Positions 17,532-22,097 of a stretch of DNA of 64,000 nt are shown one piece after another. Position 1 is the first letter of the stretch. Each line of letters starts with the position of its first letter. Location of the stretch: the NCBI GenBank assembly GCA_021815805.1, contig JAKAZQ010000003.1:93703-157702 (forward strand), read 5' to 3'. Source of the DNA: Pseudomonadota bacterium (lineage in GTDB: Bacteria; Pseudomonadota; Gammaproteobacteria; Burkholderiales; Burkholderiaceae_C). The position numbers and the translations under genes are program-made. Under the pieces are notes generated by a model. That model searched no databases. It saw only the letters and a list, made by a program, of their open reading frames with translations, and was not told where the DNA came from.

Positions 17532-17608
17532 GGTGGCTGTAGCTCAGTTGGTAGAGTCCAGGATTGTGATTCCTGTTGTCGTGGGTTCGAGTCCCATCAG
17601 CCACCCCA
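17532..17608 (+). tRNA. tRNA-His(GTG)
   Basis: GGTGGCTGTAGCTCAG...GGATTGTGATTCC...GGTTCGAGTCCCATCAGCCACCCCA; 77 nt with G-1. Confidence 0.97.
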
Positions 17609-17652
17609 AGCATTGGGCGACGAAGCCCGGCCAAGTGCCGGGCTTCGTCGTT
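17602..17652. repeat. direct repeat copy 1 (tRNA-His 3' end plus terminator hairpin), att-like
   Basis: CACCCCAaGCaTTGggCGACGAAGCCCGGCCAAGtGCCGGGCTTCGTCGTT; second copy at 22047-22097 with 5 mismatches. Confidence 0.85.
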
Positions 17653-17689
17653 GGGTTCCGGCCTGTTTCAGGGAGCTGGCGTCGCGTGA

Positions 17690-18124
17690 TCACGCCTTCA
17701 AGTGCGTGAACCGCGAACGCGACAACAGTTTCCTGAAGTCGCGGTCGAAGCTCACCAGATGTTCGCCCAGCTGCTCCACGGCGGCGGCCAGCCAGGCATC
17801 GGGAAGATCGTTGCCGGATAGCTGCTTGTCCAGGCACAACTGTCGCAGCCTCACCCATTCCGGGCCGAGGGGTGCCAGCTCGACACCGGGGGCTGCCAGC
17901 ATGGCGTCCACGAAAGCGACCGCATCGGCCGTGGGGGTCGGTTGAAGGAAGATCTTCGCGCTCGTGACCAGCCGCAGCAGGCTGGACAGAACCATCGGCA
18001 TCAAGGTCAACGTGCCACCGCTCTGCGCAGTCGCAAGCGCCTGCTCCAGCCACGCGCGTGCCACCCGATGATGCGGATGGTCGCTGCGCGAGGCTGCGAC
18101 GAGAACGTTGACGTCAGGCGTCAT
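17690..18124 (-). CDS. VapC PIN-domain ribonuclease toxin
   Basis: MTPDVNVLVAA...HPHH...; NDLPDAWLAA; LVSFDRDF acidic PIN motifs intact. Confidence 0.92.
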   Translation of the reverse strand: MTPDVNVLVAASRSDHPHHRVARAWLEQALATAQSGGTLTLMPMVLSSLLRLVTSAKIFLQPTPTADAVAFVDAMLAAPGVELAPLGPEWVRLRQLCLDKQLSGNDLPDAWLAAAVEQLGEHLVSFDRDFRKLLSRSRFTHLKA

Positions 18125-18359
18125 CTCCGAGTGCCTCCAGAAGCGCCTTGTTGCTTGTCGGATCGATGCCTTCGACGAGGCCGCCGCGCCCGTGGAATAC
18201 CGGCAGCTTCTTCCCTGGGCTGTCGGCGCCAGGGACCTTGGCGCGCAGCCGCAGCTGCAGCCCTTCCTCGATGATGCGGGTCAGGCTGGTGCGCTGTCGA
18301 GCCGCCAGCGCCTTCGCATTGGCGAGAAGCTGGTCGTTGAGATCGAGCGTGGTTTTCAT
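18114..18359 (-). CDS. VapB-like RHH antitoxin
   Basis: MKTTLDLNDQLLANAKALAARQRTSLTRIIEEGL; overlaps the start of the toxin. Confidence 0.88.
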   Translation of the reverse strand: MKTTLDLNDQLLANAKALAARQRTSLTRIIEEGLQLRLRAKVPGADSPGKKLPVFHGRGGLVEGIDPTSNKALLEALGDDA

Positions 18360-18366
18360 GCGTCAA

Positions 18367-18386
18367 TCATACAGAATTCTGTATGA
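18367..18386. promoter_or_regulatory. perfect 20-bp palindrome, probable VapBC operator
   Basis: TCATACAGAATTCTGTATGA is its own reverse complement and lies just upstream of the antitoxin ATG. Confidence 0.7.
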
Positions 18387-18419
18387 AGCACATGGCGCCA
18401 GCGTCTCGCCGCGACTTGC

Positions 18420-18488
18420 CTACGCATCCCACGGGTTGATGACCTTGAGGCCGGCCGCCTGAAACGGCGTCACGTCGCGCGTGGCGAT
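18420..18488 (-). pseudogene. C-terminal fragment of a FitB/VapC PIN toxin
   Basis: Translates IATRDVTPFQAAGLKVINPWDA*, the typical FitB-type C-terminus; no matching N-terminus nearby. Confidence 0.75.
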
Positions 18489-18898
18489 GCGCGCATTCAG
18501 ATCGCAGGGCTCTGGCGCGAAGGCCTCGACGCACACGAGCGCGCTGGCTCGACGAGTGGGAGCTTCAGCCTTTTCCACTATAGGGGTGACCAGCTCCAAT
18601 GTGTGGAATCAGTTAACGCGCCGATAGATCATATGATGGCGCGCAAACTACTGGCCGCCTCTGCTTCACCATCCCCGGAAACTGTGTGCGACGCGTCCGT
18701 GCCGCTCAAGTCCCTACTTTGACGACGACTGCGGTCTCCCCAGTCGTTGCCCAAGCTGACCGCGTTCATCGCCGACAGCTGGTTGGGCGAGAGCGATTCG
18801 AGCAGGGACGCCATGCCGCAGACCACGCGCCGCGGGCTGTTGCTTGCAGCTTCGTCGTTTACGGCCAACCGCTGTGCGAGGTTGCAACGGCGGGGTGA

Positions 18899-19402
18899 TT
18901 ACCTGGTTGCGGTGCCGCAGGCCGCACGCAGGTCTGCGACCGTGCTCATCAAGATCATGGGATCCAGCGGCGAGGCATCCAGGCCGAGGCCAAGGTAAAA
19001 GTCGCGTGCCTGCTCGGACAGGGCATGCACGATCATGCCGCGTATGCCGATGGCATCGGCGGCCTGGATCACGCGCAGACCCGCGTCGTGGAACAGTGCT
19101 CGGCCCAGACCCCGTCGGTGGTGCGTCGTGGCGACGGCCAACCTCCCGAGTACGACGACTGGTATGGGATCGGGCATGTTGCGACGGAAGCGACCCGGAG
19201 CCGAGACCACGGCGATCGCGCTCGAGGCGAGGGCGTAATAGGCGACCACGCGTCTGTCGTCGTGGACCACGAAGGTGCGGGAAGCGCCGCTGGTCTGGTT
19301 GGGGCTTGCGCGACGCACGAGCCACTGGTTCAGCGAAGTCACGCCGCAATCGAACCCGGCCAGCGCGTGACCGGCGCTCAAAGGTTCCGGCGGGTGCAGC
19401 AT
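18899..19402 (-). CDS. GNAT acetyltransferase toxin (AtaT/TacT-like)
   Basis: [36 protein letters not shown]...[19 protein letters not shown]. Confidence 0.93.
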
Positions 19403-20590: not shown

Positions 20591-20621
20591 TGCCATGAAG
20601 CCAGCCACACCGAGACGCGGT

Positions 20622-20854
20622 GACCATCAAGGCTCGCGAGGCGTCGGTCGCGGCGATGTAGCCGTTCGCCGTGCTGATGGCCTTGCCCTCGCGTCGCGCC
20701 CGGGCCATCAGAGTCGCGTAGGTCTGCGACGCATCGAGATCGAAGGGCAGAACGCGCCCCCCTGCGGTATTTCAACAGCCTGTTAAGACCTCGCGTTCAA
20801 ATCGGGCGCGTTGGGCCACAGTTCGGAAAGGACGTTGGTGTCGACGAGGATCAT
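20622..20854 (-). pseudogene. FitB/VapC PIN toxin, interrupted and internally deleted
   Basis: MILVDTNVLSELWPNAPDLNARS* then an IS-end-like scar, then RVLPFDLDASQTYATLMARARREGKAISTANGYIAATDASRALMV. Confidence 0.85.
20757..20786. mobile_element. isolated terminus of the MITE/IS-like element inside the vapC pseudogene
   Basis: CCCCCTGCGGTATTTCAACAGCCTG-TTAA versus CCCCCTGGGGTATTGCAGCAGCCTG-CTAG at the end of copy 1. Confidence 0.7.
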
Positions 20855-21108
20855 TCGATGCTCGGTGGCAAAGCAGGCGTCTTGTCGCGGAGCTGGCTGA
20901 ACTGCTCGAATTCGGCGTCGGCCAAGCCGCCGGCTTCCCGAGCGATCGAGGCAAGCAGCAAGCCGAGTTTGAGTCGACCTTCGGGCCTTGCTGCCTGCTC
21001 CAGGATGTCACGAACTTCGGCCTCGGTGCTGCGGCCGTGCTGCGCCGCGCGCACCCGCAGTGCGCGATGGACCTCGTCCGGGAGATTTCGAACCGTCAGA
21101 ATGGCCAT
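20851..21108 (-). CDS. FitA/StbC-like Arc-family antitoxin
   Basis: MAILTVRNLPDEVHRALRVRAAQHGRSTEAEVRDIL; ATGA overlap with the vapC start. Confidence 0.92.
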   Translation of the reverse strand: MAILTVRNLPDEVHRALRVRAAQHGRSTEAEVRDILEQAARPEGRLKLGLLLASIAREAGGLADAEFEQFSQLRDKTPALPPSIE

Positions 21109-21120
21109 GGCAGCAAACGG

Positions 21121-21396
21121 TCAGCCCTCGATGCGAACCACGGCACGGCCGCCGACGGCGTGGGCGTAGCGTTGCACGGTGCGTAGCGACGGCGGGCGGC
21201 GGCCGCTCTCCAGGCGGGCGACCACGCTTTGGGTCGTGCCCATGCGCTGCGCGACCTCGGCCTGGGACAGCCCGGCGCGAGCGCGGGCAGCGGTCAGCTC
21301 GCGCGCGATGGCGAATTCCTCGGCCAGTGCGTCGTACGCTGCCTTGGTTTCCGGGGTGGCCAGCAACTCGGCCTTCATCTGCTTCAAGGACTTCAT
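21121..21396 (-). CDS. XRE-family HTH antitoxin (HigA-like)
   Basis: AYDALAEEFAIAREL..ARARAGLSQAEVAQRMGTTQSVVARLESG. Confidence 0.9.
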   Translation of the reverse strand: MKSLKQMKAELLATPETKAAYDALAEEFAIARELTAARARAGLSQAEVAQRMGTTQSVVARLESGRRPPSLRTVQRYAHAVGGRAVVRIEG

Positions 21397-21716
21397 CGCA
21401 TGGCCTCCAGGCGTTTGCGCGCGATCTCGATGGCGGCGCGCGGGGTAGTCTGCGTCTTCTTCACGAACAGATGCAGCACGGTCAGGGTGCGGTCGTGCTG
21501 GGCAACGTAGACGGCGCGTGCGATGCCGTCACGACCCTTCGCTCGCATCTCCCATAGCTTGTCCTCCAGCGGGCGAACATGGGGCATCCCGACGCGCTGC
21601 GGCCCGAAGGTCTCCAGCATGTCAGCCACTCGCAGCAAGCGCGCCTGCATGTCCGCCGGAAGCGCCCGCAGCTCGGGCTCGGAAGCGGGATGAAACTGCA
21701 CCTTCCATGGTCGCAT
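21393..21716 (-). CDS. RelE/HigB-family toxin (Gp49-like)
   Basis: GMPHVRPLEDKLWEMRAKGRDGIARAVY...LHLFVKKTQTTP; toxin-first order. Confidence 0.92.
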   Translation of the reverse strand: MRPWKVQFHPASEPELRALPADMQARLLRVADMLETFGPQRVGMPHVRPLEDKLWEMRAKGRDGIARAVYVAQHDRTLTVLHLFVKKTQTTPRAAIEIARKRLEAMR

Positions 21717-21731
21717 GGTATCGCCTTTTTG

Positions 21732-21854
21732 CTATTGCCCGACAAGTCGCGAGGCCGGCTCGTCCTCGGCAGCCGGTGTGAACTCGATGCCGGCTTGCTC
21801 CAGCATCCAGGCTTCGATGCGATCATGGTGCAGGCGCAGCAGGCCCAGCGGGCA
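21732..21854 (-). pseudogene. probable C-terminal relic of a tyrosine integrase
   Basis: CPLGLLRLHHDRIEAWMLEQAGIEF resembles, from recall, the tail (..RPLDLLRxHHERIEAWILEQAGI.F) of a betaproteobacterial tRNA-targeting integrase family; located next to the distal direct repeat. Confidence 0.5.
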
Positions 21855-22046
21855 GCGTGGGACTTGCTCGGTGTCGCCAGCACCATGCGTCCTTCGGACT
21901 TCGCGGCCTTGAGGCGCGACGCGAACGCCCAGGCCACGCCGCGTGGCAGCGGTTTCAGCAGGCATCAGGTGGCGTGTCGGTCTCGTCGCATCAGACTCCT
22001 CGGAGCGTCAGGGTGCTCGTCCAGTTCCCGTCTTCGTCTCGCCCCG

Positions 22047-22097
22047 CACCCCACGCTTTGAACGACGAAGCCCGGCCAAGCGCCGGGCTTCGTCGTT
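22047..22097. repeat. direct repeat copy 2 (att-like, includes terminator hairpin)
   Basis: CACCCCAcGCtTTGaaCGACGAAGCCCGGCCAAGcGCCGGGCTTCGTCGTT. Confidence 0.85.

Follow-up and report, generated by a model that had tools for sequence, protein, structure and literature searches.

How does a bacterial chromosome come to carry, next to one tRNA gene, a string of toxin-antitoxin (TA) operons of unlike families and almost nothing else? We asked this of the tRNA-His locus in contig JAKAZQ010000003.1 (assembly GCA_021815805.1), using a stretch of 64,000 nucleotides that we call the window. The host is a betaproteobacterium near Thiomonas, from mine drainage. The window has a GC content of ~72%, and its PpiD is at most 77% identical to that of any genome representative (72% to that of Thiomonas sp. 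FB-6). We conclude, with a probability of roughly three in four, that the array is the eroded and reshuffled remains of several small integrative elements that inserted serially at the 3' end of tRNA-His. The array itself is confirmed. It belongs to known kinds of locus, a tRNA-linked tandem relic array and a toxin-antitoxin system (TAS) island; it involves no new mechanism.

A co-oriented array of toxin-antitoxin genes at tRNA-His

The gene order at the locus is hupB, tRNA-Val, ppiD (15480-17471), tRNA-His (17533-17608), the array, and an alpha-2-macroglobulin-like gene from 22571. The array starts at 17609, directly 3' of tRNA-His, and extends to 22449 (4.84 kb). Approximately 83% of it consists of type II TA genes or their remnants, and all credible genes in the interval are on the minus strand. 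Its GC content (0.63-0.67) is 5-8 points lower than that of the flanks (0.70-0.75).

A first-pass annotation, made from the sequence of the window, had described the locus as an islet composed nearly entirely of co-oriented TA modules, with three apparently intact pairs and two pairs in which the antitoxin is intact and the toxin decayed. Our analysis agrees. Only small minus-strand genes lie 3' of tRNA-His. Matches to Pfam and NCBIfam profiles confirmed VapBC, TacA-GNAT, and a helix-turn-helix (HTH) antitoxin with a Gp49/HigB toxin as the intact pairs. In the two decayed pairs, the killer toxin gene is truncated (killer') and fitB is split and frameshifted. The pairs are made of small, adjacent, co-directional genes of known families, with overlaps or gaps of at most 13 nt. 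They are type II TA pairs by family; their toxicity and neutralisation are predicted.

Two other statements of that annotation held in part. It had reported no other cargo, which is nearly right: the exceptions are an integrase remnant (int', 21732-21965) and orf70, the stump of a DUF4440 gene. It had also described the islet as bounded by direct repeats. The repeat itself is there (17602-17652 and 22047-22097; 51 nt, 90% identity, with an estimated chance expectation well below 1e-9), but it is not a boundary, as ParE and a remnant of its partner (ParD') lie beyond the right copy. The repeat lies inside the array, as part of what we call an R unit.

tRNA-His is an integration hotspot in related bacteria

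Within the Thiomonas-like clade, we found the tRNA-His 3' end to be a hotspot of integration. In 10 of the 11 closest relatives ppiD is followed by tRNA-His; the contig of the remaining one stops short of tRNA-His. Loci and contigs used for comparison are given L numbers. L006 and L009 have an intact gene for a 564-aa large serine recombinase (Resolvase, Recombinase and Zn_ribbon_recom domains), with its 3' end abutting tRNA-His. L010 has a 381-aa tyrosine integrase at tRNA-His and L113 has one of 339 aa. C-terminal remnants of serine recombinases are present at the site in L001, L004 and L006.

Elements that carry an integrase insert at this tRNA, and its 3' end is duplicated in the process. 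L113 contains three exact copies of the tRNA-His 3' end (27-49 nt) that bracket two elements, one of ~4.5 kb (integrase, Rep_G2P and a membrane protein) and one of ~3.9 kb. These two elements separate the true tRNA from a TA array that is 92-95% identical to that of the window and collinear with it. L111 shares this array with L113 and lacks the integrase element.

Integrase remnants directly adjoin TA operons. The remnant in the window, int', is next to the Gp49-HTH operon. Its residues match the C-terminal tails of two integrases, 17 of 24 being identical to the tail of one (L028 14093-15526) and 18 of 29 (62%) to that of another (L092 1220-2602). Both of these integrases are intact and contain Pfam Phage_integrase. 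A longer pseudogene in L095 shares the frameshifted reading of int' and sits upstream of a HigB-HTH pair. In two further cases the remnant is of a serine recombinase and directly adjoins a single TA pair, HigB2/A2 in L001 and BrnTA in L006. We found no other integrase homologue, and no intact integrase, in the window.

The first-pass annotation had left the mechanism of accretion unexplained. That no longer stands, given the intact integrases at tRNA-His in relatives, the triple tRNA ends of L113, and int' in the window: the accretion is largely explained by tandem site-specific integration followed by decay.

As an array of several modules, the locus is specific to the Thiomonas-like clade. 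In a survey of 42 ppiD loci, mostly from more distant Burkholderiales, genes of our TA panel were found within 5 kb downstream of ppiD in 4/42 and in the upstream control regions in 0/42.

In L004, the serine-recombinase remnant at tRNA-His is followed first by a gene (12293-13276) for a 327-aa protein with a C-terminus that, judged by eye from the translation, resembles an HNH nuclease. It could be restriction- or defence-type cargo at the hotspot.

R units retain diverged tRNA ends

Older insertions lie further from the tRNA and have kept degenerate tRNA ends and a hairpin, their integrases having been lost. Each R unit is made up of a diverged T-arm and acceptor end of tRNA-His, the core CACCCCA with a short spacer, and a perfect GC hairpin of 16-18 bp. 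The consensus of the diverged tRNA end, from aligned copies in the window and its relatives, is AGTTCGCATCTTCGT...CG.ACCCCA. The window has two full R units and a half copy at 18849 (Table 1). The left hairpin has a predicted energy of -34.7 kcal/mol and the right one of -42.3 kcal/mol, and the left R unit is 96% identical to the copies in L001 and L007.

Whole or partial R units are also found inside the homologous arrays of L001, L006, L007, L085, L095, L113 and L117/L118. The position that holds the half R unit in the window holds a complete R unit or hairpin in L001, L085, L095 and L113. When we scanned a metagenome collection for the diverged tRNA end by exact pattern, there were three matches, and all three (3/3) were beside genes of the TA panel, which form full arrays in L117 and L118 and amount to a DUF4440-type stump in the short L116.

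Two other identities for the hairpin were rejected. A consensus scan gave no flag for a canonical intrinsic terminator, and there is no T-run. A genome-wide repetitive extragenic palindromic (REP) element does not fit a hairpin with just two copies in 64 kb.

Module content and order vary, and segments are exchanged

The first-pass annotation had also proposed a hotspot with variable module content and order. Comparison of the tRNA-His locus across relatives bore this out: both vary. Module content differs in every relative examined. Other TA sets are present at tRNA-His in related species (L007, L001, L006, L095 and L113); L095 has eight pairs, including killer/antidote twice, HigBA, ParDE, TacAT, FitAB and BrnTA. 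In L111 and L112 Gp49 is absent and the HTH antitoxin alone is kept.

Inter-R segments occur in different orders among strains and species, and many extra insertions and deletions break away from R units. In L105, L111 and L113, an intact ParE-ParD pair precedes R-VapC-VapB; the order in the window is a permutation of this. No single-event history could be derived that leads from the L113-like order to that of the window. L101-L103 match the window at 99.7-99.9% from 8429 to 19371-19780, and L101 (99.9% up to 19780), the only one running past 19780, then has DUF4440-antidote-FitB-FitA-BrnAT. L105, L081 and L085, like L101, are partly identical to the window and then rearranged. Alternative joints in metagenomes include 18485->20622, 21116->22021, 17641->18849 and 20485->18443. 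The joint 17641->18849 is R-to-R; it falls within the arm of the hairpin and has 11 nt of overlap. Outside R units, there are breakpoints at 18485/20622, 19780/19785, 20442/21093, 20615-20621, 21490 and 22449.

Parts of the array have moved between organisms. The interval 18758-20615 is present at ~97-99% identity in isolates of other organisms, next to their own tRNA-His. Their ppiD is ~87% identical, so the near-identity of the segment indicates recent transfer. A second, possible case is L081 (ENA ERZ27237103 k141_803761), which is 99.97% identical to the window over 21093-30945 (9.85 kb), a stretch that holds HTH-Gp49, int', an R unit, ParE and the alpha-2-macroglobulin/PBP1C operon. Its ppiD flank is just 71-77% identical. 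This sharing reflects either a recent exchange of a large block between species or a chimeric assembly.

We made several other observations on the distribution of these modules. The 1.9-kb segment 18758-20615 is near-identical in isolates of three organisms from other studies and in root, soil and wastewater metagenomes; in the organism designated A it is joined straight to the tRNA-His 3' end. Four of the 11 closest contigs from metagenome-assembled genomes (L002, L003, L005 and L008) end within ~100 nt of tRNA-His, which is the assembly-break signature of a strain-variable locus. The exact 96-aa TacA, with the GNAT gene and a similar hairpin, is found at a second chromosomal locus in L093, L094, L096, L099 and L100 (e.g., L093 10001-11735). 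Its neighbours at that locus are an MFS transporter on one side and an AbiEii/HTH pair on the other, and a fragment of Gp49 is close by. A second TA cluster is thus present in the genome, and single TA modules appear to move from one locus to another.

Intact and damaged genes of the array

Features of the array are listed in Table 1. Among the intact genes, VapC and VapB are 90% and 78% identical, respectively, to the copies in L007, and the GNAT toxin is 84-90% identical to 167-aa copies in L001 and L095. The exact 96-aa product of tacA is already on record. ParE is 90% identical to that of L095, which has a gene for a 94-aa partner upstream.

Table 1. Features of the tRNA-His array, in order of position in the window
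Feature	Coordinates	Strand	Evidence or remark
tRNA-His (GTG), integration target	17533-17608	+	ARAGORN; Rfam RF00005
Left R unit	17602-17652		Last 7 nt of tRNA (CACCCCA), spacer, 16-bp GC hairpin 17618-17652
VapC (PIN) toxin, full length	17690-18124	-	Pfam PIN; TIGR00028 108.8 bits, profile 4-132/143
VapB-type antitoxin	18114-18359	-	Pfam DUF6364, VapB_antitoxin; stop overlaps vapC start
FitB C-terminal fragment, 22 codons	18420-18485	-	Matches 3' end of L007 FitB
Filler, left part of the fitB-splitting 2136-bp block	18486-18848		Similar only to contigs of the same variant
Half R unit (right hairpin arm and ~20 nt), just downstream of GNAT gene	18849-18878		83% identity to 22087-22116
GNAT acetyltransferase toxin (TacT-like), full length	18899-19402	-	Pfam Acetyltransf_7/10/1
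TacA (DUF1778) antitoxin, 96 aa	19406-19696	-	Pfam TacA1, E=1.8e-23
orf70, N-terminal stump of DUF4440 gene	19762-19974	-	39% identity to N-terminus of L007 162-aa DUF4440 protein
Addiction-module antidote (HigA-type antitoxin), full length	19993-20292	-	Pfam dnstrm_HI1420, E=1.6e-35; TIGR02684 108.8 bits
killer' (RelE/ParE-family toxin)	20296-20613	-	TIGR02683 79.9 bits (cut-off 62.85), profile 18-94/95
FitB N-terminal and middle part	20622-20854	-	blastn to L007
FitA antitoxin (ribbon-helix-helix, RHH), full length	20851-21108	-	Pfam FitA-like_RHH, E=2.6e-22
HTH (Xre-type) antitoxin of Gp49 pair	21121-21396	-	Pfam HTH_3, HTH_31
Gp49/HigB-like toxin, full length	21393-21716	-	Pfam Gp49, E=5.4e-28, profile 2-90/90
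int' (orf77), 3' remnant of P4-like tyrosine integrase	21732-21965	-	Directly upstream of Gp49-HTH operon
Right R unit	22019-22116		Degenerate tRNA-His 3' end 22023-22053, CACCCCA, hairpin 22061-22097, ~20 nt
ParE toxin, full length, beyond right direct repeat	22097-22402	-	Pfam ParE_toxin
ParD', last 13 codons of ParE partner antitoxin	22411-22449	-	True right end of array

The killer' gene has lost its 5' end and start codon at a recombination junction. Approximately the first 17 positions of the profile are missing, and gene finders call an 81-aa product (20296-20541). Intact 97-aa copies of killer are present in L007 and L095. The similarity of the killer' region to other genomes stops at 20615-20621.

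FitB is in two pieces, split by a 2136-bp block that contains the filler, the half hairpin, GNAT-TacA, orf70, the antidote and killer'. It is also frameshifted and has a 121-nt internal deletion, replaced by ~33 nt of the end of a repeated element (20755-20787). In mine-drainage metagenome contigs like the source, the joint 18485->20622 makes FitB continuous again; translation across this joint reads ...GYIAATDASRALMVATRDVTPFQAAGLKVINPWDA and then a stop. The joint is present at full depth, indicating that a form without the 2136-bp block coexists with that of the window. The filler, including 'orf79', had no family match and is similar only to contigs of the same variant.

Repeats were seen around these features. 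A 171-nt inverted repeat (91% identity; 3171-3341 and 30805-30975) flanks a 27.5-kb segment that includes the tRNA-His locus, and the ~33 nt inside the broken fitB are from the end of this element. Metagenome depth at the fitB spot is 6-10x that of the local sequence, with loose ends at 20751 and 20787. This suggests that the 171-nt repeat is a multi-copy element resembling a miniature inverted-repeat transposable element or an insertion sequence. L081-L083 all end within the repeat copy, at 30945. Two tandem 270-nt units at 45019-45558 (73% identity) are unrelated to the array.

In relatives, the DUF4440 gene comes after the antidote gene. L101 and L113 have 467 nt extra at 19780/19785, with the remaining part of the DUF4440 gene and an R copy. 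Killer and antidote are repeatedly followed by the 162-aa DUF4440 protein (L007 12107-13213, L095 6721-7827, L113, and the window at 19762-20613), the N-terminus of which resembles HigA2/NadS-type antitoxins. In L081, antidote and DUF4440 are fused in a 269-aa protein that is on record in 12 contigs. Killer, antidote and DUF4440 may form a three-gene TA module.

At the right end of the array the damage is of the opposite kind, the antitoxin having been lost and the toxin kept. The alignment to L095 (95.9% identity over 22088-22449) ends at 22449. L105 and L113 continue past the equivalent position with 455 nt of intact parD. The intact 94-aa ParE partner (L095, L105 and L113) had no Pfam family match. 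The orphan ParE is probably silent, the operon promoter having been lost along with the 5' end of parD. According to the first-pass annotation, the locus loses toxins and keeps antitoxins. This is true of killer', FitB, and Gp49 in L111 and L112; it is not true of ParE and ParD'.

A proposed origin by serial insertion and decay

We suggest the following origin for the array. TA operons would arrive as stabilising cargo of integrative elements that insert at tRNA-His, and would outlast the deletional decay of these elements, because loss of a working pair leaves its longer-lived toxin to poison the cell. R units would provide portable stretches of homology, or residual sites for recombinases, at which excision, re-insertion and deletion could take place; the co-orientation and the shuffling of the modules would follow from this. 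Toxins could then decay freely through ordinary accidents, and antitoxins would persist for as long as any cognate toxin is active. ParE can have stayed intact because the deletion of parD probably took the operon promoter too.

Several points weigh against this origin. There is no intact integrase in the window, and current mobility is thus unproven. The fresh integrase-bearing elements (L006, L009 and L113) have no TA pair detectable by our panel, so the notion of TA operons as cargo rests on the four adjacencies of an integrase remnant and a TA operon (the window, L095, L001 and L006). The uniform form of the diverged tRNA end may have spread with the array, and not by independent insertions. 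A single simple insertion at CACCCCA cannot yield a hairpin at both ends, as found in the window. In addition, int' occupies the tRNA-distal side of its segment, and its 3' end lacks an R unit. Finally, that TA operons survive through post-segregational killing is something that we infer.

Alternative explanations

The first-pass annotation had suggested an anti-addiction or abortive-infection bank. In this explanation, orphan antitoxins would protect the host from toxins brought in by plasmids or phages (anti-addiction), intact pairs would act in abortive infection, and the array would be selected and kept for the benefit of the host. It is compatible with the decay described above. We consider such a bank unlikely and found no positive evidence for it. 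Similar arrays are kept at the same site in several species (L007, L095, L113 and the window), and there are orphan antitoxins, namely FitA and the antidote in the window and the HTH protein without Gp49 in L111 and L112. Conjugative plasmids commonly have modules homologous to the single TA pairs of the array. A variant of FitA is covered by one metatranscriptome contig. These observations are consistent with a bank. The metatranscriptome contigs of the same study leave even ppiD uncovered and are uninformative on expression here. However, the damage to the toxins can be traced to identifiable accidents (the junction at 20615-20621, the 2136-bp insertion and the footprint of the repeat element), and intact versions of FitB and Gp49 coexist in the same metagenomes. 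Keeping ParE and losing ParD is the reverse of what an antitoxin bank would do. PADLOC (PADLOC-DB 2.0) found no defence-system model, giving just generic HTH matches for the HTH antitoxin and a weak partial NsnC match for Gp49.

It is improbable that the R unit is an active recombination site, at which TA cassettes would be excised as circles and re-inserted beside tRNA-His by a recombinase that passing elements supply in trans. The near-identity of the 1.9-kb segment that isolates of other species have beside tRNA-His would agree with such a site. If it were true, the locus would be an integron-like cassette platform built on a tRNA gene, with a TA pool shared across the community.

We give even less credence to a new, integron-like platform in which a dedicated, trans-acting recombinase captures single TA cassettes and shuffles them precisely at the R hairpins, with the end of tRNA-His in the role of attI and the hairpin in that of attC. 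Such a platform would account for the common orientation of all cassettes and for a very stable hairpin, 90-97% conserved, just 3' of vapC, the GNAT gene and parE. It would also fit the circular permutation of segments between L113 and the window, the joint within the hairpin arm (17641->18849), and the travel of GNAT-TacA with a similar hairpin to another locus (L093). On the other hand, there are just three hairpins for ~7 modules, and most breakpoints lie off R units, which argues against a precise cassette machine. The R hairpins are 35-nt perfect stems beside a tRNA-derived core, and such a core is expected of scars left by a tRNA-targeting integrase. A scan of 17609-22450 for attC-like sites (RYYYAAC...GTTRRRY with paired ends) found 0, compared with a mean of 0.1 in shuffled sequences, and the window has no integron integrase. 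These last two results rule out an integron, or a cluster of attC sites lacking an integrase (CALIN), in keeping with the first-pass annotation, which had stated that the locus is not an integron; an integrase is present only as a remnant.

There is likewise very little chance that the order in the window is an assembly chimera of co-occurring strains or species from a short-read metagenome. The source contig is metagenome-derived, L081 shows the mismatch between shared block and ppiD flank described above, contigs of several samples break within the array or at the tRNA, and many alternative joints coexist in the same samples. Nevertheless, for each junction in the window, an independently assembled contig of a different sample runs across it (L101-L103, 8429-19780; L086, 19140-21101; L087, 19550-21469 at 100%; L082 and L083, from 21161 and 21329, respectively). 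The R repeats (51-98 nt) are shorter than the final k of the assembler (141), and the modules and this class of array, whatever the order, are also found in an isolate, Thiomonas sp. FB-6 (L007).

Comparison with known systems

The first-pass annotation had ranked the locus as the best candidate in the window for an undescribed system. We found instead that it fits systems already described, namely accretion and decay of integrative elements (PMC5704250) and TAS islands (PMC2701414). TAS islands are close groups of type II TA pairs that belong to unlike families (Makarova, Wolf & Koonin 2009, PMC2701414). Their diversity cannot be due to tandem duplication, and it was proposed that one region of the chromosome incorporates TA pairs preferentially and/or that 'cassettes' of several pairs are transferred (PMC2701414). 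The array in the window likewise has closely spaced pairs of unlike type II families. In contrast to those islands, its insertion site, its scars (the R units) and the likely enzymes can be named, and reshuffling is visible at the level of strains.

In the tandem accretion model of cis-mobilizable elements (CIMEs; Pavlovic 2004, Bellanger 2011, reviewed in PMC5704250), an integrated element decays to one that has no integrase and keeps its att sites. A new element then integrates beside the relic, yielding composites with repeated att copies (PMC5704250). Among the loci studied here, L113 shows this process. The window keeps att-like R units (17602-17652, 22019-22116 and the half unit at 18849) and has no intact integrase. 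The permuted segment order (L113 compared to the window) and the R-to-R joint 17641->18849 are hints, from sequence comparison, of a possible CIME-like mobilisation. The relics here differ from CIMEs in being very small (0.7-2.5 kb) and in consisting almost only of TA operons, and no oriT or transfer genes were seen. The examples in the CIME literature are mostly from Firmicutes. The locus also has several features of a tRNA-linked island: it is adjacent to a tRNA, contains repeats of the tRNA 3' end, deviates in GC content, and is variably present among relatives.

Islands of unrelated TA families were described in 2009, their origin not being worked out, and one route to them is clear from this locus and its relatives. 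Integrative elements use a tRNA gene again and again, the elements erode, and the addictive TA operons stay as a layered and reshuffled deposit. The locus also cautions us not to take such arrays for dedicated systems of defence or anti-addiction. Metagenome assemblies break at the hotspot, and in mine-drainage communities it is exchanged from one species to another. Its truncated toxins, together with its orphan toxin and antitoxins, make it useful as a natural model of TA decay.

Sedentary chromosomal integrons (Vibrio superintegrons) and CALINs contain co-oriented arrays that are rich in TA operons, each operon having a promoter of its own, and that have palindromic repeats between some units, and the TA pairs of integrons are thought to stabilise the array against deletion. 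The array in the window differs in having no intI, attI or attC, in repeats that come from the 3' end of tRNA-His, and in irregular unit boundaries.

TA pairs promote the retention of integrative elements in MosAT on SXT (PMC2654960) and HipAB on CGI48 at tRNA-Trp (PMC8978831). Our array resembles these in having TA pairs on integrative elements and in being a composite island at a tRNA gene. Those islands keep their integrases and large cargo, whereas here the stabilising modules alone remain.

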